DNA from: Nitrososphaerota archaeon
GTDB lineage: Archaea > Thermoproteota > Nitrososphaeria_A > Caldarchaeales > Caldarchaeaceae
DNA: 64,000 nucleotides
Direction: 5' to 3'
Assembly: GCA_041641305.1 (NCBI GenBank)
Contig: JBEPYN010000002.1
Location: forward strand, 416,001 to 480,000
The notes beneath the pieces were generated by a model. The model did no database searches and had not been told where the DNA came from. It saw only the letters and a list, made by a program, of their open reading frames with translations. Both the position numbers and the translations under genes were made by a program. This document shows positions 24,289 through 51,302 of the stretch, piece by piece. The first letter of the stretch is position 1. Every line of letters starts with the position of its first letter.

Positions 24289-24725
24289 CTGACGCCCAGT
24301 GGAAACTCCCTCTTAACGGCCTCGTCGCCGACGTATACCTCGACCCTGAAGGTCGCGGATGGGTATGTGAATATCCTCCAAGAAGAGCTGGCCACTCCGT
24401 CTTCGCCGGTTACTAGTTCAACGCTCTGCAGAAGCTCTGCATACGTCACCCTTAGCCGAGTGTTCGCCAAAGGCCTGCACCTAGTATAGTCCATCGCGAC
24501 GGTACCGTTTGGAAGAGTTACCCAGCACTGTCCGCCGCTTCCGACAAGGTCCTCGACCACCATCACCCTGAACTCGTAGGGCCATAGGATGTGGGGCTGT
24601 TGCCTAGAGTCGTAGAACACTATGATACGCGTCGGGCTGGGCGCATCACCTTGGACGTCGCCGTGAACAATCAATGGAAAGACCGCGGCTAGGAGTATGA
24701 CCAGAGCCAGTTTAAGCAGCTTCAT
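24207..24725 (-). CDS. secreted/membrane-anchored protein
   Basis: Signal peptide plus C-terminal TM helix. Confidence 0.65.
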   Translation of the reverse strand: MKLLKLALVILLAAVFPLIVHGDVQGDAPSPTRIIVFYDSRQQPHILWPYEFRVMVVEDLVGSGGQCWVTLPNGTVAMDYTRCRPLANTRLRVTYAELLQSVELVTGEDGVASSSWRIFTYPSATFRVEVYVGDEAVKREFPLGVRWFTLASVAAFSVMLSSMIYAMRRGMW

Positions 24726-30800: not shown

Positions 30801-31798
30801 GTTCCGTTAATCAAGGACATGCGGTAGCCCTCATCATAGGCGTTGTAGTATCCTCCGCCACCTGTGTCAAATATGGTCTTCTGAGGAGTCTTCAAAACAT
30901 CTCTCATTATTTCTATTATTTGTTCGCAGGTCAGGTTGCCTCCGCGGGGCAGGTTAGCGCATACCTTGTCCCTGTCTATCTCGGGAGGCTGCGTAAACTC
31001 AGCAATGAGAAACGGGTACCACAACGTGTCGTTCTCCCTGTCATAAACCGTGTACCTCACGCCTCCCTCCATTTCGCCAACGGCCCTGCTGGCTATGCTA
31101 AGCTTCTGGATATCAGCGGCCTCCATGATGCTCTGTTCCACATAGCCCGGCGGAGGAGATGCCGCCACTATCGCGACCGGGAGGGCTAGAGTCAAAGCCG
31201 CTCCCAGCACCATCATTGTCTTCCCCGCTGTTCTCGCGAAAGGAATAGCGAAGAGCGCCGCTCCTATAATAAAGAGGGTTGGCGCGACGCCTTTAGCCAA
31301 GCCCACGAAGGCGACCACACCCTCCATGAAGACAACAACCCCCGACAACAGCTTGGCAATGAATATGAGCAGGTTGAAGACGGCGCCGAAGATGAAGCTC
31401 GCTATCGCGGACAGAAGTATCCCCACGCCCGAGAGCCAAGCCGGCAGAAGAGCAAGCATCACGATGGATTGCAACGTGCCGAGACTCATCGCCGCAAGGT
31501 TCACCGCCTTGAGCCACTCGAACGCCATGTCCCTGCTCGCATGCGCCGACGCAATGGCGTCGTCGAAGGTGGCCGTCAAGGGCAGGCTAACTCCCATGCT
31601 CTGCAGGTAACCTGCTAACACAGGCTTGAGCAGCGCGATGCTTCCGACGATAGACAGGATGGCAGCCGTTGACCAGCTATGCATCATCGCTGTCCACCCC
31701 CATCTCCTGAACTGGGGGAGCGGGAGGCTGAAGAGAACTAAGCCGGCTCCGTATACGAGGGCCGCAATCCCGAAGGCAATCTCAGCTTCGTTAGCCAT
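27812..31798 (-). CDS. very large CedA/TedA/VirB6-like membrane protein
   Basis: N-terminal YGAGLVLFSLPLP..RRWG multi-TM region similar to 31805..32659, a large Cys-containing soluble region with many NxT/S sites, a further TM helix and a charged tail. Confidence 0.6.
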   Translation of the reverse strand: MANEAEIAFGIAALVYGAGLVLFSLPLPQFRRWGWTAMMHSWSTAAILSIVGSIALLKPVLAGYLQSMGVSLPLTATFDDAIASAHASRDMAFEWLKAVNLAAMSLGTLQSIVMLALLPAWLSGVGILLSAIASFIFGAVFNLLIFIAKLLSGVVVFMEGVVAFVGLAKGVAPTLFIIGAALFAIPFARTAGKTMMVLGAALTLALPVAIVAASPPPGYVEQSIMEAADIQKLSIASRAVGEMEGGVRYTVYDRENDTLWYPFLIAEFTQPPEIDRDKVCANLPRGGNLTCEQIIEIMRDVLKTPQKTIFDTGGGGYYNAYDEGYRMSLINGTYARRVWFLNMWVTLYDTSPRNITVHKVPEDPDPSAMACTGTDPDREFFFGGWDDGSISCNPYLIWKERWESFWKASNLYNETSLWMVAANRNTTFVWFTEQPWGTKKEDLNIYGITLPKVRETRWQVNETYTCETDGNSSTVETCWRWHYYTRGDYSGNKSVYFVYLNMDDYDVCWHIDPIHGGPVNGTDICERRLGTPSWSYEFRPFTSNPPSWNHTVMDSSFAEIQAAGFIDGYGPYVLPQSVEAIDRNEPLELNAPTQQKKVFVTANQTIIRDSYDGYPEVPDSLSYSFRVIFTASESMPYLPPVEWHKFDEDREYTRELASGGYVPDNILGISVDNFRGEWARYQNFRQGLYRDGPSHEATRRINAELLRYREEHWENNATIFNTSIPLAKSVSTILYKYAKGTYAGSDIQISVLPILMTDVGSVRILKPLSELIGQSFAIGLAIGLLAIIIDSFQSLVGGQSVMMKYVVGKVGNITHAAKFMTTFTGAVRRMARVDMLARWAQRRQENQLLKAATEAREKNRKTWDKVAERTRFSGIMERMLDKRRELEGRGGIVARAERLALGVMTRSYTVRVAMSAVRSDPKFAESVRNAYAERLTMKGYSLEEATRKADLLIGWAKQSRIVEARPEKVAQGFANMLKPSTMSQRITLVDSFARSDFGKHVVGAALIEGILSPTVGKAAGWMSMRLSASGHASAGAFFGYVSDQLDGRIRAPAAFTLAADNNPFSPEGVKPLVTPAYVPEFRTGILHPAGSAEQPLIRQHDYGGDPSDVKHAYDMHRSYGTPEDYKRFQERFEEYMWIVANPYDPDFRLTNLMDGGDRIVVETSMGTYEVSKNELDEFMKVMEEMGARAHAASAKGYDVSPADYQPGPGVSELQQQYMDSLREKIISGADDPKTLDELFSVADSLGKREDAASFVERVGSESDGEFKVPWWAAGREDVSEHMSWGDFGKKENDVGDTVESQMPPEWGQAGAESGKNGGENEWKRKSSD

Positions 31799-31804
31799 TT
31801 CTCA

Positions 31805-32659
31805 TCACCCGAAACCAAGCGAGGCTGCTACCCCGCCTATACCCTTGCTCAGGGCAGAGGCAGCCGCCATCACAATACCCCATCCAGCGAGCGAGCCCAA
31901 GGCGAACCTCCACATCCGCATGATGGTGTTGTCCTGAGCGTTAAGCAGCCAGCCCACGAGGTCGAAGACATTTTGAAAGGTTCTACCGAGGTCTGTGCTG
32001 GCGACATCGTCAAGACTGCAGGGCTTTGCCTCCCCAGCGCTGCAAGCTATCAGGCCTATGGCCGGTATGTAGGGGCCGGCGGCTGCGAAGGCCAAAGACG
32101 CCGCCAGAAGCCAGCCGCCTATACCCTTCAGCTTCCCACCGGGAACCGCTAAAAGCGCCACACCTATCGGCGCAAGGGCGACCGCTAAGCTTCCGAAAAC
32201 GGTCAGGAACACCATCAGAGTGAAGCCTGTGATTAACGTGACAGAGAGCGCGAGCCCCGGCAGAGAGGCGATTACGCTAAAGATGTTGGCTATCGCCGGC
32301 CCCACTATAGGTATCAGAGCAGTACCCATTCCTATGCCCGTAATGATGGCCAAAATGGTGAAAGCCTTCATACCAAGCCCCATGTATATGTCAGGTAGTG
32401 AAGCACAGGGCGTCCTCTCCGCAGAAATAGCTTGGGACACCATGCCGACTATGCCGTTGAAGGAGTTAGCCGTCCCGAGGATAGCTATGAAGCCGGCTGA
32501 GACGAGGGCATAGCTGATAAGCTGTCCACCCCAAGAACTTCCATGACCTCCGGGTAGGGGCAGCTTGTGTAGGGCGAGTCCAATCCCATAGCCTATGGCT
32601 ATAAGCGACCAAGCAACAGCCGCCCAGGCTCCAAGCCCGGAGTATTCGCAGGCTATCAC
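31805..32659 (-). CDS. CedA/TedA/VirB6-like polytopic membrane protein
   Basis: YGIGLALHKLPLP...WGGQLI pattern, several TM helices and C-terminal ALSKGIGG, as in crenarchaeal CedA-type proteins. Confidence 0.6.
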   Translation of the reverse strand: MIACEYSGLGAWAAVAWSLIAIGYGIGLALHKLPLPGGHGSSWGGQLISYALVSAGFIAILGTANSFNGIVGMVSQAISAERTPCASLPDIYMGLGMKAFTILAIITGIGMGTALIPIVGPAIANIFSVIASLPGLALSVTLITGFTLMVFLTVFGSLAVALAPIGVALLAVPGGKLKGIGGWLLAASLAFAAAGPYIPAIGLIACSAGEAKPCSLDDVASTDLGRTFQNVFDLVGWLLNAQDNTIMRMWRFALGSLAGWGIVMAAASALSKGIGGVAASLGFG

Positions 32660-32731
32660 GGATAACCACCTCTAACCATAAACCATATTTTGAAAAAATA
32701 TGGAGGGGGTTGGCCCCAACATGTTCACCTA

Positions 32732-33175
32732 CTAGAATCGGGGCACCTCCCATGGGCTGCTCGGCTGCGGCGGCGTGGTACCAAAGCCAGCGCCTGTCGT
32801 GGCCACGGTTGCGGCAAAGTAGAGCAGGTAGACGCCTAGGGCTGCCAGCCCGGCGAGTATCAGGGCGCTGTCAAGAAGCTGGCCGCCGGCGTCCTTGGTT
32901 CTATGGCTCCCCGTCGGCAGGAACTTTAATGCTAGACCTGAGCCCAGCAACGCAGCCGCTATCAGGAGCAGGAGCTGCCCAAACCCTGACACCGCGCCCT
33001 GAAACGTGTTGGCTATCGCCGCAGGCCCTCCTCCTTGCCCCGTCTGTTGAGCCATTGCAGCAAGCAGCAGGTGCGCGTTGGCAGCCGCTAGGCTTATGGT
33101 CGTGGTCGCGAGCCGCAGCCTACCGCTTCTCAGCCCTTTTACGAGGTTTGACCCTTTCCGGGTGTGGTGCTTCAT
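32732..33175 (-). CDS. VirB2/CedA1/TedC-like pilin precursor
   Basis: Leader followed by two hydrophobic helices separated by a short charged loop (KFLPTGSHRTKDAGGQLL); first gene of the transfer operon. Confidence 0.6.
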   Translation of the reverse strand: MKHHTRKGSNLVKGLRSGRLRLATTTISLAAANAHLLLAAMAQQTGQGGGPAAIANTFQGAVSGFGQLLLLIAAALLGSGLALKFLPTGSHRTKDAGGQLLDSALILAGLAALGVYLLYFAATVATTGAGFGTTPPQPSSPWEVPRF

Positions 33176-33196
33176 GGCTTTCTCGAGACCATCCTC

Positions 33197-33588
33197 AAAT
33201 ACGATAATACTTAAGCTTTGGCTGAATCTGAACACTTTTGGTCGGCCACCTAGGTCGGCCAGTTTGGTCGGCCACTCTGGTCGGCCAAAGCTTATAAAGG
33301 AGCATTTTTCATATAACCCCGTTATGGCCGCTTCTTAATATAGCTATGTTCGCATTTTTCGCACTTGGCTCTATAAGCCTTTTATCACCATTTCTTTACT
33401 TTTTAATACTTTTTCAGGAATTTTTTGGTTATCTGGTATTTTTTTGTGTGCAAATTACCTTCCGCATTATTGATAAGCTTATCGGTATGGTTTTTCATGT
33501 TGGTCGGCCACATACTGTATATATTTTTGCTGGTCGGCCAGTTTGGTCGGCCACTCTGGTCGGCCAAAGCTTAAGTATTATCGTGTTT
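33197..33588. repeat. iteron array and AT-rich core bounded by 29-bp inverted repeats (putative origin / divergent promoter region)
   Basis: GGTCGGCCA at 33240, 33253, 33266, 33279, 33502, 33532, 33545 and 33558; inverted repeats 33197-33225 and 33560-33588 (27/29 match), each containing AAAGCTTAAGTA. Confidence 0.85.
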
Positions 33589-33599
33589 TAGGGTTGTTG

Positions 33600-34545
33600 A
33601 ATCCATGCGAGATTCGATGAAGCCTGCGGCTGGCTGAGCCGGGATGGGGCGTCAGCGGAGCGCTCCGACGACGGGGTCCGGCAGGTACCCCGTCGCCCGA
33701 GGGCTGGGCGCCGGCATGCCTGGCCCAAGGTCCCAGGCATTCGCATGGATGAATGCCGAAGCCGGCGATGGATAGGTGGTCCGTGACGGAGAGGGGCTCC
33801 CCGGAGGGTGAGAAAGCCACGCACCACACCCGGAAACCCCGCCCAGGGAACCCCGTAGAATAAACCATCAAGCCCCCATATATTGTTTACCGGGGGTCTC
33901 GGGTGGGGTATATGATGGGTGTCCCGTGAGCGGTCGGGGTCAGGGCCCGGGGTCATCCCGGGTGAGGCTGGATGGTCCAGCAGCCTGCGACGGGTAGCCT
34001 CGGGAGCTTGGCGTGGTCCACCAGAGTATATCCGGGGGATTGTGGGATGATGGCTGGGGCTGGCTCGGCTGCCCAAGGGGGCTGGGCAGGGCTTGGATGG
34101 TTCATCCAAGTGGGTGCTACCCCGCCGGAGCTGGTGCAGCCGGCTGGTGTCCATCCCTTGGACGGTTTATCCAAGGGGGTGACGCCGGCCCAACCCAGAG
34201 CCATTAGAATCACTAGAATGTCCTCTCCGTCTTCTCTGGGCTTCCGCGTCCGGGTTGAAGCCGCCCGCCCAGAAGCCGCTACAGATAACAGCCCCACACG
34301 GACCGGGGTGCGGCGAAGAGGCGGCTAAAGACCCGGGACAAGGGGGAGAACGGTTGGCTGATTCTCCCCGCCATCCCGGAGCCCACACCCGGGAAACTCT
34401 TCCCGGCAACGCCCGTTCACGCGGGCGGGGGGCTCAACAACACAATGCCCCCCGAAGATGCCAGGGAAACTCCGGAGGTGGGCTCTCCGGAATTGTCGTC
34501 CGGCGGGGGGAGACGCCCTCGATGGCCCGTCGGGGTTGCGAGGTG
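33600..34545. other. GC-rich, hairpin-dense non-coding region
   Basis: Many perfect or near-perfect stems and no credible ORF. Confidence 0.6.
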
Positions 34546-34561
34546 AAAGAGAAATGAAGAC

Positions 34562-34813
34562 ATGATGATTCTTTTGCTTGACGGCGGCTCTATCAGTGCA
34601 TCGATAGCAAGCGCTATAAGAGATGTGATTCTGTTGATTTTCGACATCCTGACCCCGATAATCAATATAATCGGGGTCGGCATGATTGCAATAGGGCTCC
34701 TGCTGGGGCTCGGACTCCGGCAGGAGTTCCTCGGCTTCCGATTAGCTATCGGCGGAGCGCTGGCTCTTCTAACTGTCCATGTTCTAGTGCCATTTTTATT
34801 GTCATTCATCTGA
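34562..34813 (+). CDS. small two-TM pilin-like (VirB2/CedA1-like) protein
   Basis: 83 aa with two hydrophobic helices joined by LRQEFLGFR; GAGGTG ribosome-binding site upstream. Confidence 0.6.
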   Translation: MMILLLDGGSISASIASAIRDVILLIFDILTPIINIIGVGMIAIGLLLGLGLRQEFLGFRLAIGGALALLTVHVLVPFLLSFI

Positions 34814-34997
34814 CTTCTCTGACCTCTTAGCGACCCAAACTCCCCTCCTTTTTTTCCGTGGAGGCTTTCTCCCCCCTTTCGTATTGTCTGTTAGTGTCCG
34901 CCCTCGCGGGCGGAGCCTCCGGTCCCCGAGTCCGGGAGGCTTCCGCCCTTGTGGGGGAGAGGGGCGGAGAAGCCTCCCGGCGGGAGGGGTGAAAGAC

Positions 34998-35135
34998 ATG
35001 AGTGACTTCCAGAAGGTGTGGGGAAGCGAGGACAGCTTCTTAACCTACCAAGCCAAAACTCGGAGGTCATACCTCCGAGTCCGGGCTAGTAGGTGGGAGG
35101 AGCTCGTCCTCCATCTCCAGAACCAGCTCTTTTGA
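34998..35135 (+). CDS. small hypothetical protein (45 aa)
   Basis: ATG after a GGAGGGGTG ribosome-binding site: MSDFQKVWGSEDSFLTYQAKTRRSYLRVRASRWEELVLHLQNQLF. Confidence 0.45.
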   Translation: MSDFQKVWGSEDSFLTYQAKTRRSYLRVRASRWEELVLHLQNQLF

Positions 35136-35273
35136 CTGGCTGTGACAGCGCCAGCCAGCCAAAACACCCCTTCTTTTTTTCCTTCATATGCCCATACGCC
35201 TGAAACATGGCGTCCACCCCATAATCATTAAATGGGGTGGCGGGGGTGGTTGGCTGGCTCGCGCCTGGCTCCA

Positions 35274-35557
35274 TGCCCGTGTGCTGGGGCTGCATAGGCC
35301 TTGCCCGTGAGCGGGTCTATGCATCCTGCGCCCTATACACCGGCCACCCCCGCAGGGTCTTGCCCGTGTGCGGGCCCTGTGGTGAGCTTGCCCGTGAGCG
35401 GCTCCGGTGTGTGGGGGGCCTGCTTGCCCGTGTGCGGCGGCTGTCTGCAGGCAGGCGCTTGAGGCGGGTGACAGGGATGTCTCCTGCACCATGTGTTTGC
35501 CGGACTTGCCCGTGAGCGGTCGGCATACATGTGGGGAGCCTTCCTGCCCGTGCGCGG
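35274..35557 (+). repeat. seven dispersed copies of TGCCCGTG(A/T/C)GC(G/T)G
   Basis: Copies at 35274, 35302, 35361, 35389, 35425, 35507 and 35545; related copy near 33922. Confidence 0.85.
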
Positions 35558-36121
35558 TTGGCTCCAGCGGGAGACACCCAAGCAGACGACATACAGACGA
35601 TGTTCAGAGGTTGTTCAGATGCTCCGCCAAGGAAGCTCTCGGAGCCATCTTATCCATGGGAGAGGCATGGTGTCTCTTCCATGGGCTTACTCTATCAAGG
35701 CGCCGTGGGGGTGCTTTGATGGAGAGGCTCCTAGCCCTGTTGGCGGAGACAGGTGACGAATAATGCTTCCGAATATTTCTGACGACATCCCCGAAGATTG
35801 ACACTGGTTCCATGGATTAAGCAGCCGATTCAACAATACCTAGGAGATACAGAGGTTCAAGGTATTCTGATAAGCAGTCGGATGACTCTAGATAACTACA
35901 ATGGTCTCAACAGGTCTCTAATAAACGCCGACAAAAACAGGTCAAAGACTATCAACGATACTTAGCACCTCCCTCGGCGGGCCAACCCCGGGAACAGGGG
36001 CTGGGAGGATGCGGAGACTCTCCCGGGCCGCATAGGCCCGCCTCCCCACAAAAACACGGGGAGGGAAGATGACCCTCCAAATCCTCCAAAAAATCCCCTG
36101 GCTCCCGGGGGTAAGGTCTGG

Positions 36122-36466
36122 ATGGCGACCAGGGACTCCGCGGATGGGCGGGTCCGACCCGTCCGTGGAAACACTGCCCATCGGCCATATGGTGTGGGGG
36201 TGCAGAAGAAGTTGACAAGTAGTCTGCTGGTACCCGGATTGATAGCTCTGGCATTGGTCTATGGGATACAGTTGGTCAACGAGGGGCATCTGTTCGAAGG
36301 TGTTCTGTTGATGGTTGTAGGTATCTTTGGCGGAGTGTATGCTGAATACCTTCTGCAGAGATGGCGCATGAGTTACTGTGACTACTGCGGGGGCAAGATG
36401 AGGAAAGATGTCGGCGGACTATACTACTGCGACAGATGCAGACGCTTCGCTCCTCGACGGGCCTAA
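36122..36466 (+). CDS. small membrane protein with C-terminal Zn ribbon (true start likely near 36193-36199)
   Basis: Two TM helices, then CDYC...CDRC. Confidence 0.65.
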   Translation: MATRDSADGRVRPVRGNTAHRPYGVGVQKKLTSSLLVPGLIALALVYGIQLVNEGHLFEGVLLMVVGIFGGVYAEYLLQRWRMSYCDYCGGKMRKDVGGLYYCDRCRRFAPRRA

Positions 36467-36480
36467 GAGGGCGTGCAGGC

Positions 36481-37944
36481 ATGTGGGCTAGAGTTTTTGT
36501 GACACTGATAATCATCTTTGGCTTCGTAGGGTACGCTTGGTATGCAGCCATGTTAGCCTCTCAGAGATTGTTTGAACGTGGAATCATCAAAGAATCACCT
36601 ATGCCAACAATAGATGTCAAAACAATAACAACACAGGTGGCTCAGTACACAGGCATCGCTGTAACCCTGCTAATGATAGCCATTGTGGTAAAGAGGGTCG
36701 TTGAATCGGGTAGACTTCTGGGCGTCATTAAAGTCTCCGACCTTCAGAGGCATCTACTACTGCTTGGACCAACCGGTAGCGGCAAAACAAACACTGCTAA
36801 ACAGGCGATTGCCTTAGCCGTACGTCGTGGTGTCAGGGTAATCGTCATCGACTGGAAAGCCCTCTTCTCTCCGCCAGCGTTTTTCACGTCTCCCCAGCTC
36901 AGTTCCGCCGCATAGGGTTCGCGTGGAGCTTCTGGCGGAGCTGGGAGGGCCCAGAAAGGCGAGTACGTTAACTTCATCAAGGGAGCCTCCGTCGTCAGGA
37001 AACTCAACGTGTGGGACAACGGTGGTAGGTCGCCGAAGGAATGCGCTGTCCTCGCTGTCGAGACATTGAGAGAAATTACACGCGATATCGCAGATGTTTC
37101 ATCCGCCAGCGCAGCCCTTCTCCTGAGGGAGCTTGTAAAGCTCTACGGGAGAGGGGTGCCGAAGACATCCGACGTAGTTTCAGCTCTTGAGAAGTTCATA
37201 AACACCGCAATGGCGGAGCGGAGACTTGCCGAGGCGAATATGGCTTCTGCATTGCTTAGAAGGATGATGTGGCTCCAGATAGACGAGGAGAGGCCTGCGA
37301 AGAACATCATAGGCTCTGACAGGGTTGTTGTCTACGACTTATCAGAGCTCGGAAGCGTCTACCTGAAAACCATCTACAGCCTCAGCATCCTTTCAAAGAC
37401 CTACTACGGGGCCCTTAGACAGGGACAGTCCCAGAAACTAGAGACGCTGGTGATTGCAGAAGAGTGCCAAAACTACATACGTGGTAGGCGTTTCGACGAG
37501 CCTCCGTCGATTGGTGAGAGAATGGCTAACGAGCTGAGGGCCTACGGCGTCGGCATGGTCCTGATAAGCCCGGACCCTGTCCAGATACCCTGGCACCTCG
37601 CCAGAGACGTTGCAGCAGTAATATCCATAGGACTTCAGGCGATACCCGACAGCGTCAAGGACCTGTTGAGAACAATTGACCCCAAACAGGCGAAGAGAGT
37701 AATGATGGGTAAGAAGGCCTACGTCTATTACAACGGCAAACTGAAGACAGCCTCTCCGCCCAAGCCTCCAAAAGAAATAGAACTAAACGTTGACGTAAAA
37801 GAGGTGATTGAAGAGACTAAGCCTGAGGAGACTGTCGAGACTACTGCTACACAACCAGACAACTCTGGGGCAGAGGAGAGTGTTCAGACAATGCCGATAG
37901 AGCAGAAGGAGCCTTTGGAGGAGGCCCAGAGAGGCGTGAATTGA
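36481..37944 (+). CDS. membrane-anchored HerA/VirB4-like ATPase, spliced: join(36481..36857,36957..37944), 454 aa
   Basis: Walker A LLGPTGSGKT in exon 1; removing the BHB intron gives VIVIDWKGEY; Walker B region VIAEECQN and LRAYGVGMVLIS in exon 2. Confidence 0.85.
36858..36956 (+). other. BHB-type mRNA intron 1 (99 nt)
   Basis: Central helix CUGG/CCAG, bulges AAA/AAA, long inner stem; contains an in-frame TAG. Confidence 0.8.
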
Positions 37945-37990
37945 TAGAGAGCCGGGGAAACCTCCTCTAAGGCTTGAAGAAGATGAAGAG

Positions 37991-38755
37991 ATGGTCGATG
38001 AAGACGAAGAGCAGGTGACAGAGGCCCCGCATGGGCGCATACCCCCACGGGAGGGAGTCCCGCCAAGATGATGTGGTGGTTGTGAGCGCCCCGGGAAAGC
38101 CGAACCACAGACACAACAAGAAAAAGCAGAAGAGGAGCAGGCAGATGAAACCACTGGTGGATTCCCCCTCCACGGCCACATGGTCGTGGAGGAGGCTTTC
38201 GCTGACGAGTCGGTTCTACGATGTGTTAGATGTGGGGCTTCGGCCTCGCTGACAGAGGCTACACAACTCATGGAGAAGCCTTGCCAAGAACCTCGAATGA
38301 CGCAGGATAACCTTCAGACCCGGTGCGGATGTGGACGGCCGGCGACAAAGCTTATGCCGTCATACGACCCGATAACCATGACGTTTAAAGACCTCTGCCT
38401 GTGCGACGGCTGTGCCAACGACTACCTCAACATCCTCAGGAGGTCAGGCCCAGCCCTAGGCAAGATGAGGGGGAGAATACCTGCGAACGGCTATTGGTTC
38501 AACCTTTACAACACCGTCTTCCAGGAGCTGGCTGGGACATACCCGTGCCCAGCCTGCGACCAGTTCTTCGACGACCTGTATTCCGCGGTCAAACACTTCG
38601 GCGAAAAACACATCGACAAGACAAAGACTCCAGAGGAGGTTGTCATAGACGGGGTTCCCGCCCTTAGGACATGGCAATACATATGGTGTACAAAATGTCT
38701 GAGGTTCTTCGAGAACGAGCGACATTTCCGTTCACATCTCCGAGACCATAGGTGA
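37991..38755 (+). CDS. acidic N-terminus plus multiple Zn-finger protein, spliced: join(37991..38031,38098..38755), 232 aa (possible ATT start at 37940)
   Basis: CxxC pairs and C2H2-like CPAC...H....H and CTKC...H...H; the frame is open across the intron except for the intron TGA. Confidence 0.7.
38032..38097 (+). other. BHB-type mRNA intron 2 (66 nt)
   Basis: GGC-CCCG-CAU-GGGCGC pairs with GCGCCC-CGGG-AAA-GCC, a strict helix-bulge-helix-bulge-helix; contains an in-frame TGA. Confidence 0.8.
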
Positions 38756-39120
38756 AGCAGATGAAGTTCAGGGGAAAAATTTACAGGGATGGGGGAAGGC
38801 TGAAGCTGGTCTTTGACAAGCCCCTCCCGCGTGGGAGGGTGACGCTGCTGCTGACGAGGGTGGACGGAAAGGCTATGGAGTTGAAGTTCGATACAATGAT
38901 AACCAACAACGACCCCTATCGATTAAAGTGTCGGTTGCCACCGTTCCCGGAGCTGAGGCCCGGGGCGGTGGTCGAAGGAATAATCGAAGACGAGCTTAGA
39001 TGCCGCTGGTGCGGAGCCAAGTGCTCCGCACTCATCAACAACCTCTGCGACCATTGTTTCGAGGTATTCAACAGCCCCTACAAACCCCCTCTGGGAGAGG
39101 GTTGGGGAAGGCTGACGTAG
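38752..39120 (+). CDS. hypothetical protein with C-terminal Zn finger
   Basis: CRWC...CDHC; GTGA overlap with the upstream gene. Confidence 0.65.
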   Translation: MKQMKFRGKIYRDGGRLKLVFDKPLPRGRVTLLLTRVDGKAMELKFDTMITNNDPYRLKCRLPPFPELRPGAVVEGIIEDELRCRWCGAKCSALINNLCDHCFEVFNSPYKPPLGEGWGRLT

Positions 39121-39285
39121 ACCACCGGCCAAAAACCCCAACCTCCGGGCGGTGACCCGGGGTAAAACCCGGGCGCCCCCGGCTATTTTTTCCAAGGGGC
39201 GTGTCCCGTCGGGAGCTTTCCCGGCGGGGCATGCGCCCCCTTGGCCGGGAGGCTCCCTAAGAGGGCCGCTCCGGAGGTCTAAAAA

Positions 39286-40221
39286 ATGGGCAACAACGAG
39301 AAGTGGACTCTGCCGGTGGTCTATGGAAACCGGAGGGTTCGTAGGGAGCTCATCGAGGTGCTGATGACTGTTGAAGAGTACAACGGATACACGGTGCTTT
39401 ACCTATGGTTCCACTTCCCCTACGACTGGTTTACAGCGCTAAAACCCTATGACTGGGAGCCTGTTGCAATAGCGTTCAAAGACAGCCGACCCGCCAGAAT
39501 CTTCTGGAGACCTCACTGGGCGCTTAGATGCACACGGCCTGTACTTGTGGATAAGAAGACTGTTGTCTTCTACATAAGCCCCATCAAGGGAAACGCTCCG
39601 AGATGCTCCCACTTCGATGTACTGCGGTCCATACTGGAAGACCCGTCGACCTACGGAATACCTTATCGAAAGTTCAAAGAGCTACCGCTGAAAAGCCTTC
39701 TGAAGGATGGGTGGCCGCCCGAGCACGAAGCCCGCGCCGAAAGCTTCAGAGAATACGTTCACCGAGGCCTTGAAGACATAAAAAGATGCGGGGGCGTATA
39801 CAGCGTGGTAATGGGCTTCTTCACAGACCTCCTCAGGGCCTACCTTATGGCTAGGAGGAGAAACCTCGACGGCTTCTACTATTATCTTAAGACGGCATGG
39901 GAAAACACCACAGAGAGGTTCAGGAGGAGCGGACCCGGCTACGAGATGTACAACCTACTCGTCGCCGTCAAGTACCTGCTGATGCTGCAGAAAGCGACTG
40001 GTGAAGGGCCGACGGAGCGGTTCTGGCGGGACATGGAAGGCGACCCTATCCTTCCCCCAGTGGTTAGAGCGTTGACAGGCCACATCTGGTACCCCATAGG
40101 GTTGCTGATAGCAGATGGGTATACGCCAGCCCAGCCGTTCAAAGACTTCGTTGATAAAAAATGGAGACAATGGTTCAGAGACGCCCTCAAAGCCTGCAAT
40201 AAACACGCAAACGAAGCCTAA
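39286..40221 (+). CDS. hypothetical protein
   Basis: 311 aa with a GGAGGT ribosome-binding site; LWFHFPYDW...YDWEPV block of unknown family. Confidence 0.75.
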   Translation: MGNNEKWTLPVVYGNRRVRRELIEVLMTVEEYNGYTVLYLWFHFPYDWFTALKPYDWEPVAIAFKDSRPARIFWRPHWALRCTRPVLVDKKTVVFYISPIKGNAPRCSHFDVLRSILEDPSTYGIPYRKFKELPLKSLLKDGWPPEHEARAESFREYVHRGLEDIKRCGGVYSVVMGFFTDLLRAYLMARRRNLDGFYYYLKTAWENTTERFRRSGPGYEMYNLLVAVKYLLMLQKATGEGPTERFWRDMEGDPILPPVVRALTGHIWYPIGLLIADGYTPAQPFKDFVDKKWRQWFRDALKACNKHANEA

Positions 40222-40590
40222 ACCCCCCACCTTTTTTCCAAGCCACGTGGTCCCGTCTGGGGTTTTTCCCTGGGCGGGGCCATGTGGCTCCGCTCCGGGG
40301 GAGGCTCCATGATGGGTTGCGGCGTCCAACGCCCCTGTGACAGTCCCCGAGGCGTGTGAGCGCGTAGGGGATGAGGGGCGAGGGCCTGGCCGCCTCCTCC
40401 ACGTGGAGGCCGGGGTTTGACCAAGCCCCTTTCCCTCGGGCGCCATGCAGAGGGTTTGGGAGAGGTGTGGCTGAACACCGTGTTCCTATTCCCCTCATCA
40501 GGGAGGGGTGTCGGGGCACGGCTAGTAGGCCATGCTTCCCCAAATTCCTCTGCGTGGTTGTCGGAAAAAGGGGCTGGGGAGGTGATGGAT

Positions 40591-40695
40591 ATGAAAAACT
40601 GGAAGAGGTGTTTAAAATGCGAAGAGTTGAACGACATAAACGCAGCATTCTGCCATTACTGCGGTAGAACGTTAGAAGACGCGGAGGAGGTCTAA
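40591..40695 (+). CDS. small Zn-ribbon protein (34 aa)
   Basis: CLKC...FCHYCG; GGAGGTG ribosome-binding site. Confidence 0.55.
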   Translation: MKNWKRCLKCEELNDINAAFCHYCGRTLEDAEEV

Positions 40696-41001
40696 ATGTA
40701 CCTAGTGAAGCTGCACACGGACCTTCGGGTACAACGACTCGTCTCGCGACCAGTGGAGATATTCTTTGGAGACTTGGTGACGACGATACCGAAGTCGGCT
40801 ATAGTCTGCGATGCATGCAACCAACAGGTCGCAGTCACGGAGCAGGACCTGAAAAACTTAGCGATGGGGTACGCTGTTGTAGACGGGGAATTCATCCTAG
40901 AGGTCGTATGTGAGGAATGCAGACAGCGCTACTTCGACGACATCCCGGTGTTCGACACATTAGAGGATGCCGAGGAGGTCTACGAGAAGAAGGTGAGGTG
41001 A
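40696..41001 (+). CDS. Zn-binding protein, paralog of 41004..41285
   Basis: CDAC...CEEC..R...PVFDTL. Confidence 0.7.
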   Translation: MYLVKLHTDLRVQRLVSRPVEIFFGDLVTTIPKSAIVCDACNQQVAVTEQDLKNLAMGYAVVDGEFILEVVCEECRQRYFDDIPVFDTLEDAEEVYEKKVR

Positions 41002-41003
41002 AG

Positions 41004-41285
41004 ATGGAGTTCCTAGTTTCGCTATTTACTGACAAAGAGCTCTTGAAAAAACTGCTGACCCCAAAGATTGTCATTAATGATTATGGTTACACGATTGTTC
41101 CGGCTAGGCTTGAATGCAGCCACTGTGAGCAGAAACTGCCTGTGAGGGAACCGGGAGGCTTTGCCCTCTTTGACACGGAGGGGACTCTATGGGAACTACT
41201 ATGTGAAGAGTGTAAGCAACGATTCCATTCAGGAACACCGGTTTACGAAACTTTGGACCAAGCTATTCCAAAGCAGAGGTGGTGA
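41004..41285 (+). CDS. Zn-binding protein, paralog of 40696..41001
   Basis: CSHC...CEEC..R...PVYETL; GAGGTG ribosome-binding site. Confidence 0.7.
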   Translation: MEFLVSLFTDKELLKKLLTPKIVINDYGYTIVPARLECSHCEQKLPVREPGGFALFDTEGTLWELLCEECKQRFHSGTPVYETLDQAIPKQRW

Positions 41286-41287
41286 AG

Positions 41288-43088
41288 ATGGTCAGGGTAG
41301 TGGAGCTTCGGGAGGAGACTGAGCTTCTAGAAAAACTCAAGAATCGCTTTCCACACACTAGTCTACGTAGATATCAGGCCGACATCGCTAATAGGGTCTA
41401 CGAGAGCCTTTCCAACGGCTCTAGCATTCTTCTGGAGGGCCCTACGGGGCTGGGGAAGAGGCTATGAGGAGACTGTTTATGGGGGGTGGTTGGCTGGCTG
41501 GCGTCTCCGAGCCTCCTATACAGCCCCTGTATGGGCCGCGGTGAGCGCCTACGCGGAGGAGAAAGGTCTGAGGGTTCTATGGCTCACCCGGACGGCGTCC
41601 CAAGTAGCTCACATCGCCAGCGAGATAGGATGCATGCCCATCTACGGCCGCCGGCTTCTCTGTATCCATGAGACGGTTAGCAAGGTTGAGCAGAGACGGT
41701 TCAACGCGGCTTGTAGAGTTGTACGACTATCCGGACGTTGCTCATACTATCCCGGAAGGCCTAGCCAAATAAAGGCGAAGACTGTTGGAGAGATTAAAGA
41801 TGCCGGTAGGAAGTCGGTCACATGTCCCTACGAGCTTCAGCTGACATCGATGCCATACTCGACGTCGCTGGTCGCCACCCATAAACAGTTGTCTGTAGTT
41901 TCCTGGCTTTTGGCAAAATGGCGTTGGACCCGCGAGCGAACCATCTTGGTGCTCGACGAGTTCCAGAACATCTTGAAGACTGTTCTCGACCTCTCAAAAG
42001 ACGCCATAAGCCTGGCAACGCTCCACAAGGCCGCCGCAGAGGCAGCAAGGTATGGCTTCAGGGATATTTCCAGCAGTCTTTCAGAAGCTTATCAAAGATA
42101 CAAGGCGGTTGACGTTGACGAGGCTGAGGTAGAAAACCTACTGCCCAGCTTCGAAGAGCTCTTCGAGGCGGGGCAGGAGATACAGGCTAGGAAACTTGAG
42201 GAGAATGTTGTACCCGCCAGCTATGTGTTGAGCGTCGCAGACTTTAAGGCTGCTCTCGGCCAGCAGAAGCCCCTCCTAGTCAGGGAGGGTGAACGGGTTT
42301 GGCTGGAGGCGCTAGCAGACCCACGCGAGGAGCTTGAAAAGATTCTCGAAGGCTGGAGAACGGTCATAGCTATGACGGCCACGATGGATGCGGAACTCGT
42401 TGAACGCATGGCTTCAACCCAAGTGACGCTGTTGCGAGCAGGGTGGCCCTTCGACGATAATCTGAAGGCATACATTGTCAGCGGCCTTACGACGAGATAC
42501 AGGGACAGGGATGTGGAGCTCTATGAAGATGTCCGATGGCTTATAGAACAATCTCATGGAATGAGGACTCTCGTCTTCCTACCCAGCTATGAATTTGCTT
42601 CAATGATTCAGAAGAGGCTTAGCGACGCTATCGCCGAGCAACGGGGGATGACGCAGGAACAGGTGGAAGCCACGGCCGCTGAATTCGCGGAGGGTGGAAA
42701 AACGCTTTTAGCCGTCTTCGGTGGAAGGCTGGCAGAGGGCATCAACCTCCAAGCCGACTTGGTTATGCTGGTGGGCATACCATTCGCGAAACCATCACCG
42801 CGAACAAAGAAGCTCGAGGACAAGCTTGAGAATGTCTTTGGGAGCAGTGACCTTTCCCGGCTACATGGACTAGTTTTACCGGCCCTCTTTGCCGCCGTGC
42901 AGGCCGCCGGTAGGGCTGTCAGAGGCCCCAATGATAGGGCTCTGGTCCTGCTCGTCGACGACAGATACCGCCGTTTGACAAAACACTTGCCCAGATGGTT
43001 CAGAGACTTGGTCTCAGATAAGCCGGTCAAGCTCACAGATGTTCCCATTCTATTGGATGAGTGGTTGTCATGGATGAAGAGCGTTTGA
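41288..43088 (+). CDS. XPD/Rad3/DinG-family FeS helicase, spliced: join(41288..41458,41520..43088), 579 aa
   Basis: Q motif RRYQ; Walker A GPTGLGKT is rebuilt only after intron removal; FeS cysteines (LC...C...C...CPY), DEFQN, TAT, EGIN, GIPF and QAAGRAVR. Confidence 0.9.
41459..41519 (+). other. BHB-type mRNA intron 3 (61 nt) containing a kink-turn
   Basis: GGGGCUG-GGGA-AGA-GGC pairs with GCC-UCCU-AUA-CAGCCCC; causes a frameshift and contains a TGA. Confidence 0.9.
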
Positions 43089-44512
43089 GACACGTTCTTG
43101 AACGCATCCGCAGACAGAACATCAACTACGTGAAGCTCAGAGGACTTGTCAGCCGATTCATGACTCTCAACCCCGAGGCAGACCCAGAAGCAATAGATTG
43201 GACAGCCGTCTACGATGACTCCCTAAGCTACGACGAACTCGTCGAAGCATTTGAAAAAGAGTATCCCATGTACCGGTGGCGTGAGACAGCTCCCGCAGAT
43301 GACAAACAAATCGAGGACATGCTGGTGAACCATATCCTCAACCAGGTCGAGGACCTTACAGAAGAGTCTCTCAAGTCGCTCGTCAATGCCTTGGAGGAGC
43401 GGCTGGAGGCTCTACGGCAGGCCGAAACCCCGGCATCTCCGACGGAGCAACAACCCGAACATACACAGATGCAACATCCTCAGCACCAACCGCCGACTAT
43501 GACTGAAAACATACAACAGCCAGCGCCACAGCCGAAGGTAACCCTCAAGCTTCTCGCATCCTACCCCTTCCTAGCGGAGGCTAGGGAGGTGGTTAGGGGC
43601 GTGAGCTTCGAGGGTTTACCCAGGGCGGTATACAAAAGAGCCCGGGAGAGGCTAATGGAGGCTCTCGAACGGGGAGAGCTGGGGGTTGTTCCCCGGCTCG
43701 ATGAACCGTTCGTGGAGCTTCTCTCCTTTCCCGTGGCGAAGGCCGTTGTCCACACAATCGACGACGACTGGCTGAAAAGGCGATGGGCCCTCGCAGAGTC
43801 AGCGAGGGTCGAGAGGCTTCTACTGAAGGAGAATGCGGATGTCTCAGAATGGCTCCTCTCCCGGCTACTTGAGGTCAGGCGAGAGGGAGAGGAGTATGCG
43901 CTGAGGTTCACTGATTACCTAAAGCTTGCTGAAGGCCTTACCACCGATATCTCATGGAAGCTAGTAAACCAAAAACTGCATCGAGGCTGGGTCTTCATAA
44001 CAAAGACTCGTCTCATACGACTCATCAGACAAAAACTCTACCAACTTCTCTATAACAGCTTCCAGCAGACGCCCAAACTGACAAAAATACCTCAACAAAT
44101 CGCCGAAATGGTCGCCGACATAACCGAGGAGCTCCAAAAAATCAAAGCCCGGGCAGGACGGGTCACACCCGTCAAAGGCGCAATACCGCCCTGTATGAAG
44201 ACGATTAGCGATAGGCTGGCGGACGCCAGCCACACAGAGAACTTCGTATACGCCGCCTACTTGGTCAATACGGGATACAGCATCGAGGAAATCGTTGATG
44301 TCTTTAGGAAGAGAGCTGACTTCGACGAGAGGATAGCACGGTATCAGATAGAGCATATAGCGGGGCTGAGGGGGAGCCGTGTGAAATACCGGCCACCTTC
44401 ATGCTCCCGCATGCGGGAACTCGGACTATGCATCGAGAACGGAAGACTATGCCCACCGAATATCCACAACCCACTACAATACCGACCTAGACAACAGCGA
44501 CAACCCACCTAA
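43061..44512 (+). CDS. priL: DNA primase large subunit (PriL) with N-terminal extension
   Basis: YPFL..A, RRWALAES, WKLVNQ.L..GWV, PPCM, DFDERIARYQIEHIAG and YRPPSC...GLC....C. Confidence 0.85.
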   Translation: MVVMDEERLRHVLERIRRQNINYVKLRGLVSRFMTLNPEADPEAIDWTAVYDDSLSYDELVEAFEKEYPMYRWRETAPADDKQIEDMLVNHILNQVEDLTEESLKSLVNALEERLEALRQAETPASPTEQQPEHTQMQHPQHQPPTMTENIQQPAPQPKVTLKLLASYPFLAEAREVVRGVSFEGLPRAVYKRARERLMEALERGELGVVPRLDEPFVELLSFPVAKAVVHTIDDDWLKRRWALAESARVERLLLKENADVSEWLLSRLLEVRREGEEYALRFTDYLKLAEGLTTDISWKLVNQKLHRGWVFITKTRLIRLIRQKLYQLLYNSFQQTPKLTKIPQQIAEMVADITEELQKIKARAGRVTPVKGAIPPCMKTISDRLADASHTENFVYAAYLVNTGYSIEEIVDVFRKRADFDERIARYQIEHIAGLRGSRVKYRPPSCSRMRELGLCIENGRLCPPNIHNPLQYRPRQQRQPT

Positions 44513-44667
44513 ACACCCCCTATTTTTTCTTTCCCCGATAGGAGGCCCTTTCCGCCGCTCTCCGGCGGGAGGGGTTCCTCCTGTCGGGGAGAGGTGGACT
44601 CAGGCCTCCCGGGAAAGCCATGACATTAAGTCATGGTACCGGACCCGGCCACCGGGGTAAAGGTGGC

Positions 44668-45066
44668 ATGGACTCGTCTCCCGAGAGGCTGTTTGATGAC
44701 TCGGGAGCGCCCGCGGTTCCAAGGCCCGCCGCGGGCGACAAGTGCCAGGGCCTGAGTTCGGGGGGTGGTTCGACTTATGAGCGTCTGCTGGAGCGCTACG
44801 GCGGCTTCTTCGAGGAGCTTGGCTATGGTTGTCTCGCCAGCTTTAAGCATCTGATTGAGCAAGTGGAGGTGACTATCGATACGGCGACATCTAATGATGT
44901 CAACCTGTTTGCTAAGCTCCATGTGCTAAAGTCTGCGAGGGCCTCGGTAGAAGTATTTACGGAGTATTATAGTCGATTCCTGCCACCTACTGTCGTCAAT
45001 AACCTGCGAGCTGACCTGACATTTCTGCTTGAGCGTGCTGAGGAGGTGGTGTTGACTTTTGGCTGA
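44668..45066 (+). CDS. hypothetical helical protein (start uncertain)
   Basis: Protein-like from about 44770 (TYERLLERYGGFFEELGY...); the upstream part lies in a hairpin cassette. Confidence 0.5.
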   Translation: MDSSPERLFDDSGAPAVPRPAAGDKCQGLSSGGGSTYERLLERYGGFFEELGYGCLASFKHLIEQVEVTIDTATSNDVNLFAKLHVLKSARASVEVFTEYYSRFLPPTVVNNLRADLTFLLERAEEVVLTFG

Positions 45067-45970
45067 ATTCATAGACCCCACCATTCTGAAAGGGTGGTGG
45101 GGTTCCGAGGAATACCAGAGGCTGTTATCCTTCGAGCCGGAAAATGCAGGTGACTACTATCGGTTACCATTCGCCAAATACAACGAGCTCTTTCCGTTCA
45201 TCAAAGTCAAGATTGAGCACCCTGCAGTGATGAACCCATACTTGGCGATTTTCCTTTGGCGGCGTTACGTAAAACCAAATGATGTAATAATCGACCCTAT
45301 GGCTGGGATAGGGGGTACACCCGATATGTAGGGGCCCAGCTTTATCCCAGCCATAGCCTGCAGATTGACCAATGATAACCACTTAATCCTCAACGATATT
45401 GAGTCGACTTACGCCAGACTCTCTGAGGAGCTTCTTTCGGAGATGCTGGTCGTTACTAATCACAGCACCCTGCTGGACGTCTACAACGTAAACGCTGCCT
45501 CTCTTTATGAACTTCTTAGACCAAGAGGACTTGCTGGAGGCGTACGGAGGAGGGTTATTATTACCTCTCCTCCGTATGGCCTCCTCAGGCCCTGTGATAG
45601 CTTCAGCCCGAGGTTTGGCAGACTGACGGTAACTTCCGCCGGTAACCTTAGCGTGATAACCGGTAAACACTTTAGGGCGGCTTGGCTGGGCGTGCTGACT
45701 TCGATGTATCTCTGTCTCAACCAGTTCCATAGAAACCGTGACTTGGCTGTGATTGTCCTCAAAAACTTCAAGAATAACAATGTGGAAAAGGCTGTTGGAA
45801 AAAACCTCGTCAATTTAACGGTTGAACTCGCGGAGTTCGTTGGATTCAAACATCTCGAGACGCTGAAGTTCAAGATTTCAGGCAGCCACTTCGCCAGATA
45901 CCACGACATCAAGCAACATGTCCATGACCTCTGGCACGAATATGCGCTGGTCTTCCGCAAGGTGGTGTAG
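45059..45970 (+). CDS. amino (N4-C/N6-A) DNA methyltransferase, spliced: join(45059..45318,45340..45970), 296 aa
   Basis: HPAVM, motif I IIDPMAGIGGTF (rebuilt by splicing), NDIE, motif IV ITSPPY and HEYALVFRK. Confidence 0.85.
45319..45339 (+). other. BHB-type mRNA intron 4 (21 nt)
   Basis: 14-bp perfect exon-exon stem CUAUGGCUGGGAUA/UAUCCCAGCCAUAG plus two G-U pairs, helix GGGU/GCCC, bulges ACA/AGC; contains an in-frame TAG. Confidence 0.9.
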
Positions 45971-46819
45971 ATGAGGATTTTCGCTGATGTTCATAGGAAA
46001 AAGGATGACAGCGGCTACCGCATCACATATACAACTGACGGCGAAGTCTTTAAACACGTTGATTCTCCGATGGACATCCCCGCGCAGGCAGGAGACGAGG
46101 TATTCGTTGACACTATACCGATAATCCACACCGACGCATTCATAGAGCTACTGAGGAGAGGTGTAGAGGTCTATTATCTACGAAGACTCTCACTTATTGA
46201 AAAGACAAGACAGAGACTGGGGATACCGAAGTCAGCCAAAAATGACGTAAAAATTCTGATGAACATTGAGAAGAAATGGTTCAAGAGAGTTGACGAGGAC
46301 TTCTTGAGCATGCGTCAGATTATTTCGGCGTTTAGGAGATTGGATAGAGACAAACAGAGGTTGGAGAACCAGTCTAAGGACGTGCCGGAGATTACAAAGG
46401 AAAGCTTCAGGAGGCTCATAGACCATACAGAGGAGGAGAAGTTGGTAATAGCCAAACCAATAGTAGAAGAAGCAGAGAAGAGGCTTTCGTTATTTAGAGT
46501 AGTAGCGCAGGAGCTGGGTGTTGCAGACGATAATCATTCGATGGGAAGAGAGGCACTGGCCGAACTACTGACATACGTAGACTTCAGCAAATCCTTCAGA
46601 AAAGTCAGAGAGTATCTCGGACTCTTCAGAAACCCGAAGACCAAAAACATGAGATACAGCCACAGTTCTAGGAAGGCGTTGAACCGTCTAACAATGTCGC
46701 TGACGGGCAGAGAGCCAAAAGCAGAAGACGAGGAAACAATAGCTTTCAAGATATGGCTGACGTTCCGACGGGAAAACCAAAAGAGGCTGGCGGGCATACC
46801 GGCCCAACAACAGGGATAA
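45971..46819 (+). CDS. short IS110-related protein (RuvC-like DEDD domain, coiled coil, Nop/Tnp-like C-terminus)
   Basis: IFADVH (D6), VFVDT (D47), KSAKND in place of KTDxxD, LRQ-like MRQ...R.L......LEN coiled coil, and FRKVREYLGL. No serine loop seen after YLGL. Confidence 0.65.
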   Translation: MRIFADVHRKKDDSGYRITYTTDGEVFKHVDSPMDIPAQAGDEVFVDTIPIIHTDAFIELLRRGVEVYYLRRLSLIEKTRQRLGIPKSAKNDVKILMNIEKKWFKRVDEDFLSMRQIISAFRRLDRDKQRLENQSKDVPEITKESFRRLIDHTEEEKLVIAKPIVEEAEKRLSLFRVVAQELGVADDNHSMGREALAELLTYVDFSKSFRKVREYLGLFRNPKTKNMRYSHSSRKALNRLTMSLTGREPKAEDEETIAFKIWLTFRRENQKRLAGIPAQQQG

Positions 46820-46910
46820 AACCCATAGGCCGGTATGTCATGTTATAAAACGAACTGGCTCTCTTGCCAGTTATGTCCCAACCTTTAACGACCGGCCTCT
46901 TTTTGGGTTT
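46819..46910 (+). ncRNA. putative dual-guide RNA (bridge-RNA/tigRNA-like loop)
   Basis: Stem AGGCCGGT/ACCGGCCT encloses ATGTC-N9-AACG, hairpin AACTGGC/GCCAGTT, then a second ATGTC-N9-AACG; lies directly after the stop codon of the IS110-like gene. Confidence 0.6.
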
Positions 46911-47017
46911 CCTAGGTGTTGTTTGGTGGTTGCCTGCCAGCCAACCATCCCCCTATTTTTCCCTTCTTTTTGTGATGTTTTTTGTTTATATCATGGGTGT
47001 GGGGTGTTTTCGGGGGT

Positions 47018-47460
47018 ATGGTCTCTGAGCTTGGTTATGGTGGGTTTGTTGCGGAGGTGTTGAGTGGGCTTGGTGTGGGGTTGGGTGATGAGGTTGAGGT
47101 TGTGAGAAATGGGCTGCGGCTCCGCGGGTTTGTGATTGCGCGTTACGAGTATGGGGCGCCTGATGTTCTGGTTTTGAAGCTTTCGAACGGCTACAACATA
47201 GGTGTGCGCATCGATGCCTCTACACAGATACGTAAGCTCTCCTCAGCCGTCGCGCCATCTTTCAACCCACCTCCACCCGCCCAGCCTCGGGAAAACCTGC
47301 CCCGCGTCATGATTGCCAACACAGGCGGCACCATAGCCAGCAGAATAGACTACAGGACAGGAGGAGTTAAACCCACTCTCACTGCATCGGACCTCGTCAG
47401 CATAGTTCCCGAAATCGCGGAGAAAGCAAACGTCTCAACCGAGATTCTGATGCAGGTTGT
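47018..47460 (+). pseudogene. gatD: truncated Glu-tRNA(Gln) amidotransferase subunit D (N-terminal part)
   Basis: VLKLSNGYNIGV and TGGTIASRIDYRTGGV...DL...VPEI; similarity stops at about 47458. Confidence 0.8.
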
Positions 47461-47490
47461 GAGTATGTTTATAACATCATCCAACACAGC

Positions 47491-48417
47491 GTGTCCATGG
47501 TTGTTTTCTTTGGAGCAGTCATTCCACGCTATGACGTGGATTTTAGAAAAGTTGTGGACACGGTTTTGATGTTTGAGGAGCTTGGTTTTTCCTCGCTCTG
47601 GGTAACTGACCACATGCAGCCCCGCCGCGCCTCACGCATCCTCGAGTCATGGACGCTTCTCTCAGCGCTTGCGCCTGTGACGGATGCGAGACTGGGAACG
47701 GTTGTCCTATGCTCATGCTACCGCCACCCCTCTCTTCTCGCGAAAATGGCCGCAACCCTCGACATCATCAGCAACGGACGCCTCGAGCTCGGCGTTGGAA
47801 CAGGGTCGGAGCCACAGGCCGAGGAGCTAGAGGCCCTTGGAATGGAGACATGGAAGCCCAAAGAAAGAATTCCACGTCTGCGAGAATATGTTGAGGTGCT
47901 GCGGCTGCTGCTTTCCGACGGCGACCCCGCCACCTACCAAGGCAGGTTCTACACGCTCAAAAAAGCGATGCGCAACACGCCCACGGTCCAGAAACCACAT
48001 CCACCCATATGGATAGGTGCGCGAAAAGGGAAAATGGTTAAGCTGGCGGCCGAGATAGGCGATGGCTGGAACTTCTACGGCGAAACACTGACAGAATACA
48101 GAGAGGCCGTCAAACATTTTGACGAAGAATGCGACAAGCTAGGCAGAAGACCGAGCAAAGCAATCTTCACAAACCTCCTAATCTACAAGGATGAAACGGA
48201 CAAGAGGGAGAAGATAAAGCACCTCGGCGCCTTCGAAACCGAGGAACAAGCCCTGCGCAAAACCTTTACACTCCTACACGGAACCCCTGACCAAGTCATC
48301 AAACAGGTTGAGGAGCTACAGAGTCTCGGCGTCGGACTCGTCATCCTACGAGACATGGACCCAGAAACATCAAGCATAAAAGACTTCGCCAAAGAAATCA
48401 TCCCATCCTTCAAATGA
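47491..48417 (+). CDS. LLM-class flavin/F420-dependent oxidoreductase
   Basis: GFSSLWVTDH, ESWTLLSALA, RHPSLLAKMAATLDIISNGRLELGVG and PPIWIG. Confidence 0.9.
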   Translation: MSMVVFFGAVIPRYDVDFRKVVDTVLMFEELGFSSLWVTDHMQPRRASRILESWTLLSALAPVTDARLGTVVLCSCYRHPSLLAKMAATLDIISNGRLELGVGTGSEPQAEELEALGMETWKPKERIPRLREYVEVLRLLLSDGDPATYQGRFYTLKKAMRNTPTVQKPHPPIWIGARKGKMVKLAAEIGDGWNFYGETLTEYREAVKHFDEECDKLGRRPSKAIFTNLLIYKDETDKREKIKHLGAFETEEQALRKTFTLLHGTPDQVIKQVEELQSLGVGLVILRDMDPETSSIKDFAKEIIPSFK

Positions 48418-51062: not shown

Positions 51063-51143
51063 GCTCTATCTCACGCCGCATAAGCAACAATGGCTGAATT
51101 TATGCAATCGTGTTTAAATATCCTCAAACAAGAATCAAAACAT

Positions 51144-51248
51144 GGGCCCGTAGCTTAGCATGGATAGAGCGCTGGCCTCCGGAGCCAGAGGTCGTGAGCG
51201 GCGGTACGGAAGTGCCGCGCCGGCAGGGTTCAAATCCCACCGGGCCCG
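51144..51248 (+). tRNA. tRNA-Arg(CCG) with a 30-nt intron (51197..51226) in the T-stem
   Basis: Acceptor GGGCCCG/CGGGCCC, anticodon stem CTGGC-CTCCGGA-GCCAG, T-arm GTG|GG-TTCAAAT-CCCAC; BHB helix GUCG/CGGC with bulges UGA/AGG; TTTAAATA box upstream. Confidence 0.95.
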
Positions 51249-51302
51249 TAAAATATGTCACTGGAGGGGTTGTGGATTTTTAACAAGCCGTGAATATAGC
51301 TT

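Follow-up and report, generated by a model that had tools for sequence, protein, structure and literature searches.

BHB (bulge–helix–bulge) introns, which are cut by the tRNA-splicing endonuclease EndA, are known from archaeal pre-tRNA and pre-rRNA, where the excised product is circular, as in the tRNA-Trp intron that is a circular C/D guide RNA (PMC12558985). In mRNA, we found two described cases. The cbf5 pre-mRNA of Desulfurococcales and Sulfolobales carries a short intron of 16–44 nt with a relaxed BHB in the catalytic Asp codon, cut after the second bulge base, in hosts with heteromeric EndA and with patchy gain and loss (PMC2738675). The same 2009 paper says that introns in other protein genes were only predicted. 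HVO_1309 of Haloferax volcanii has an EndA-type intron in its 5′-UTR whose removal matters for expression, and that 2020 study names cbf5 as the only earlier mRNA case (PMC7714728). We found no later report for a mobile element or for Caldarchaeales, although our search covered few subscription papers. Here we examine a 61-nt insert in an XPD-family helicase gene of a hot-spring Caldarchaeales (Aigarchaeota) archaeon, within a window of 64,000 nt (GCA_041641305.1, contig JBEPYN010000002.1, positions 416,001 to 480,000), and all positions below refer to this window unless a host genome contig (C1, C2) is named.

The earlier note described the insert as an intron with canonical cuts in two bulges, splitting the Walker A Lys and Thr codons, and this observation is confirmed, with all of its coordinates holding. 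The BHB consists of a 7-bp exon–exon helix, a 4-bp central helix with one G–U pair, two 3-nt bulges, and an inner helix. Cutting after the second base of each bulge gives a 579-aa ORF with GPTGLGKTAPVW, whereas the unspliced frame stops two codons into the insert, after 59 residues. Other frame-restoring deletions exist on paper, but the homologues and the RNA joint select the 61-nt one. A motif this strict (outer helix of 7 or more, inner helix of 4 or more, both bulges A-N-A, 11–200 nt) occurs once on both strands of the 1.66-Mb genome and 0 times in two local shuffles, a small control, showing that it is not a chance occurrence. Genome-wide BHB scans gave, besides the introns of the element and cbf5, only candidates that looked like chance when seven were inspected, although relaxed motifs could have been missed. 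Plain energy folding prefers another register (−34.9 compared to −32.3 kcal/mol for the BHB fold, a difference of 2.6 kcal/mol), and the BHB is therefore supported by covariation and RNA joints rather than by the minimum-energy fold.

Table. Features of the helicase locus and its surroundings (window coordinates unless a host genome contig is named)
Position	Strand	Feature	Observations
41288–41458	+	Exon 1 of the XPD/Rad3-family helicase	57 codons from ATG: Q motif, Walker A up to Lys; alternative GTG start at 41279; matches the N-termini of intronless homologues
41446–41463	+	5′ strand of the BHB	Outer helix GGGGCUG 41446–52; central helix GGGA 41453–56; bulge AGA 41457–59 (cut 41458|41459); inner helix from 41460
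41459–41519	+	61-nt BHB intron	Frameshifting; in-frame stop at 41465–67; excised and circularised
41460–41513	+	Predicted kink-turn hairpin inside the intron	C-stem 41460–62/41511–13; bulge 41463–65; tandem GA 41466–67/41509–10; NC stem 41468–73/41503–08
41482–41499	+	Loop motif	Identical (18/18) to 35242–35259; complementary to pre-U-tract segments at 35149–35169 and 46936–46953
41510–41527	+	3′ strand of the BHB	Inner helix to 41513; central helix UCCU 41514–17; bulge AUA 41518–20 (cut 41519|41520); outer helix CAGCCCC 41521–27
41520–43088	+	Exon 2	Walker A Thr onward; DEAD_2 and Helicase_C_2 domains; cysteines at the Fe-S region; motifs Ia to VI intact
43061–44512	+	Primase large-subunit gene	Coupled to the helicase; conserved neighbour across the element family
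36858–36956	+	99-nt relaxed-BHB insert in the HerA-like ATPase	DWK|GEY; same site used in 9 other distinct loci; presence independent of the helicase intron; no RNA joint listed
38032–38097	+	66-nt BHB intron near the start of the Zn-finger gene	Central helix CCCG/CGGG; RNA joint skipping 66 nt with one base of ambiguity; related circle starting at 38032
45319–45339	+	21-nt insert in the methyltransferase-like gene	After DPMAGIGGT; also split in homologous locus L021, contiguous in other homologues; no RNA joint seen
about 35200–46960		Helicase module (11.7 kb)	Bounded by the end sequences that flank small units elsewhere in the genome
35241–35586		Very abundant RNA	Sharp 5′ ends at 35241–35242; starts with the element end motif; six or so spaced copies of a short repeat (CTTGCCCGTG-like); a strain variant has an extra unit
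45971–46819 (45971–46960 with stem-loop)		282-aa IS110-like protein, structured stem-loop behind it	One of four copies (58–64% identical); two copies share both end motifs with the helicase module
C1:439.9–441.7 kb; C1:515.8–518.0 kb; C2:518.3–519.3 kb		Other copies of the IS110-like unit	
33193–33294 and 33532–33592		Direct and inverted repeats of 33–42 bases	Around an AT-rich gap between the two divergent gene blocks; possible origin or operator region
44530–44615		Short hairpin downstream of the primase gene	Highly expressed; most reads come from related elements
51143–51249		Intron-containing tRNA-Arg	Missed by the default tRNA scan, found with introns allowed
24624–24720	−	Weak BHB-like candidate	Would join the 936-aa ATPase to the next 172-aa ORF; probably chance, not tested
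C1:76821–76834		14-nt BHB intron of host cbf5	After the first base of the catalytic Asp codon
C1:535991–538729		RtcB	975-codon frame with a gap of about 1.4 kb after model position 50, probably an intein

To place the insert in context, we first examined the gene and its neighbours. The protein is XPD/Rad3-like with Q motif, Walker A, Fe-S cysteines, and motifs II to VI all present, while its activity was not assayed. Single-protein scans of genome and viral contigs found nothing, and an alignment query was needed to collect the homologous loci (given L numbers below), the named ones of which come from Caldarchaeum, Caldarchaeales, and Aigarchaeota assemblies. The gene is found in 10 of 60 Caldarchaeales genomes searched, and in many loci it is followed by the primase large-subunit gene and preceded by the HerA-like ATPase. 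Large ATPases, a Hel308-like helicase, ParB and RadA-like genes lie on the other strand upstream. The small units elsewhere in the genome that share the end sequences of this module hold a homologue of the 282-aa gene at 45971, which resembles IS110 proteins only by language-model features and has no Pfam hit. No close relative was found in IMG/VR, which gave only two distant hits, or in phage records; thus, it is not shown to be a virus. There is no tyrosine integrase in the genome and no convincing att repeat at the tRNA-Arg near 51143, so the integration mechanism is open. We call it an accessory, apparently mobile element, the class of which is not settled.

Aligning intact XPD homologues had been proposed in advance as a check on the splicing interpretation, and in 68 intronless homologous loci the Walker A Lys is directly followed by Thr. 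In contrast, 14 distinct inserts of 35–183 nt lie at the same base as here, in all three length classes; each has a 4/4 central helix and every in-frame one carries a stop. Over 12 aligned sequences the central helix is 100% paired, and its third pair (alignment positions 12–202) alternates between G–C, C–G, and U–G, following the wobble base of the Gly codon, while sliding the partners drops pairing from 90% to 34–57%. The exon–exon helix has at least 4 bp in 11 of 11 intron-bearing junctions and in 0 of 31 intronless ones, so codon choice follows the RNA structure. As these sequences share ancestry, the counts are not independent. On a quick, midpoint-rooted tree, the 18 intron-bearing rows form one group containing a single intronless pair, which suggests one gain and one precise loss, although the root was not tested and the order is only suggested. 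A separate lineage (L101, L102, and L109) has 93–139-nt BHB inserts two bases upstream, inside the Lys codon. L022 has a nearly identical intron with a 61% identical helicase, while L028 has a different intron with a 91% identical one, so the region recombines. Decay of the downstream exon had been named beforehand as a sign against splicing, and none was seen: all helicase motifs are present in exon 2, and dN/dS is 0.21 against L028 and 0.15 against L021, indicating purifying selection; values against three distant loci were saturated and are not used.

A search of RNA reads for the exact exon joint had also been suggested, and four metatranscriptomes from two studies were compared with positions 34000–47500. 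The exon joint 41458/41520, with one base of ambiguity, is present in a contig of X1 (depth 10.3, 158 letters on the short side) and in 3 raw reads of X5 with 2 starts. The back-joint 41519/41459, which represents the circularised intron, is present in an X1 contig (depth 12.5) and in 4 raw reads of X3 with 4 starts; RNase R resistance was not examined. Each joint is seen in two studies, and raw reads in this bin all lie on the one strand expected for + RNA. A variant circle from a related strain is also present, and in X3 circle reads make up most of the 14 reads placed. Read counts are small, only 3–5% of the raw runs were read, there is no paired DNA and no spliced/unspliced ratio, and the X1 spliced contig differs from the window at 41585, 41588, and 41589, so that it comes from a close allele whose DNA we have not seen. 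X2 showed no helicase joint, which is no evidence against splicing. With the homologues, the RNA joints, and exon 2 all in favour, the interpretation of the earlier note is supported; in vitro splicing with EndA/RtcB, which it had also proposed, was not performed, and the enzyme is inferred.

The splicing machinery is present in the host. The genome encodes two EndA subunits of about 180 aa, one with the Tyr-His-Lys triad and one without, consistent with the heteromeric type with a catalytic and a structural subunit, and an RtcB whose ORF has a long insertion. Host cbf5 (L146) carries its intron at the site described in PMC2738675, and 17 of 28 Caldarchaeales cbf5 loci parsed (L146, L164–L181 among them) have 13–23-nt introns there. 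The 2009 paper reports this intron only for Desulfurococcales and Sulfolobales, and our search found no report for this order.

Taken together, our data suggest with a probability of about 0.94 that this is a real archaeal mRNA intron of the tRNA-splicing type. What the analysis itself demonstrates is that the pre-mRNA can fold into a canonical BHB kept by selection, and that RNA with the exons joined and RNA with the intron closed into a 61-nt circle both exist in hot-spring samples. It is by inference, from the motif and the products and without an enzyme assay or protein evidence, that the heteromeric EndA of the host cuts after the second base of each bulge, that RtcB ligates both exons and intron, and that the spliced mRNA yields a 579-aa XPD-like helicase working with the adjacent primase subunit in replicating or mobilising the element. 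In this view, an unspliced message would give only a 59-aa stub, so helicase supply would depend on host tRNA-splicing machinery. Most likely the intron is a tolerated passenger, as it sits in an invariant catalytic motif where only precise loss is viable, as with the cbf5 intron in the catalytic Asp codon.

A possible addition to this reading, rather than an alternative to splicing, is that the excised circle has a function. The intron holds a standard kink-turn pattern next to the BHB, found in 7 of 14 distinct same-site introns; an L7Ae gene is present in the genome, but as binding was not assayed, the pattern alone leaves it undecided whether this is a kink-turn RNA. The best genome-wide pairing partners of the loop are the ends of the units carrying the IS110-like gene, and the loop tracks the end variant of its own element, with 17 bp including one G–U in the window and 19/19 in L141. 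In X3 circle reads outnumber exon reads, and the variant circle keeps both kink-turn pattern and motif. Thus, an L7Ae- or Nop-domain-bound kink-turn RNA could pair with the pre-terminator or end sequences of the element and tune termination, or guide the IS110-like protein; the abundant RNA at 35241 could likewise be a guide array for this protein. However, half of the same-site introns lack both features (L005, L006, L028, L063, L143, and L145), including L028 with its 91% identical helicase, so we consider a function doubtful. The same 18-mer begins the abundant RNA, and the circle may therefore be redundant, while local copying of an end sequence into the intron would give the same matches. 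Equally tentative is the broader possibility that a family of archaeal mobile elements routes several of its key genes through the host tRNA-splicing machinery, such that splicing both licenses the helicase and produces a regulator or guide RNA.

The remaining explanations are very unlikely. The gene could be a pseudogene broken by a small insertion, with the joined RNA derived from an intronless allele or from DNA, as the spliced contig is a slightly different allele, intronless homologues are common, and some copies in relatives are broken. However, none of the 31 intronless junctions has this exon sequence, the joint was not found in genome contigs, the reads are stranded, exon 2 is under purifying selection, and inserts persist across about 55–90% protein identity; an intronless allele cannot give the circle joint, which already largely refutes this reading. 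Alternatively, translation could cross the insert by frameshifting or ribosome hopping, as the exon 2 frame is open through the insert in this allele, with the RNA joints arising from reverse transcriptase, which can skip stable hairpins. A frameshift would leave about 20 extra residues inside the P-loop, homologous inserts fall in all three length classes with stops in those in frame, the joint has only one base of terminal repeat, and a back-joint at the same two bases is not expected from skipping. Removal at the DNA level by the IS110-like recombinase, suggested by the end motif in the loop and by the excision of IS110 elements as circles, is contradicted by boundaries that are the EndA cut sites and do not coincide with the end motif, by circle reads on one strand in RNA libraries, by the strain of a 61-bp double-stranded circle, and by the absence of the motif from most homologous inserts.

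The insert works like an EndA-type BHB intron and has every feature of this class that could be examined here, while the dependence of cleavage on EndA was not assayed. Other intron classes do not fit. A homing intron would encode a DNA endonuclease, but the insert is 61 nt and the longest homologous insert is 183 nt in a search of up to 1500 nt; a group I or II intron would need a ribozyme core of some hundreds of bases, and no Rfam match near a gathering score was found in 30000–48000. Nor is it a box C/D guide RNA: its kink-turn pattern has non-consensus boxes, it has no Rfam hit, and its best pairing partners are element ends. Among the closest known systems, the cbf5 intron resembles this one as a short BHB intron in a catalytic codon of a coding sequence, cut after the second bulge base, in a host with heteromeric EndA and with patchy gain and loss, but the helicase intron lies in a different gene on an accessory, apparently mobile element and not in a core gene, has a canonical rather than a relaxed BHB, varies from 35 to 183 nt among homologues, is one of four such inserts in 9 kb, has two separate insertion sites in one codon, contains an internal kink-turn pattern and element-end motif, and is observed as a circle. 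The HVO_1309 intron is likewise an EndA-type intron in an mRNA whose removal matters for expression, but it is in the untranslated leader, whereas this one breaks the reading frame inside the ATPase motif. The tRNA-Trp intron has the same motif and circular product and is a precedent for a kink-turn RNA released from an intron; here, the host transcript is an mRNA, the boxes do not match the C/D consensus, there is one kink-turn pattern, and no methylation target was found. Archaeal XPD helicase (Thermoplasma Ta0057, PDB 4a15 and 2vsf) is the best solved-structure match of an intronless homologue (E about 1e-34) and shares the DEAD_2 and Helicase_C_2 domains, but the element-borne subfamily is coupled to a primase large subunit and, given its patchy occurrence, is not a core repair gene. 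With comparative support and both RNA products, the helicase is a directly testable second gene after cbf5, showing that an apparently mobile element can depend on host tRNA splicing for several genes, that gene callers systematically cut the Walker A off such proteins, and that one catalytic codon was invaded at two positions.
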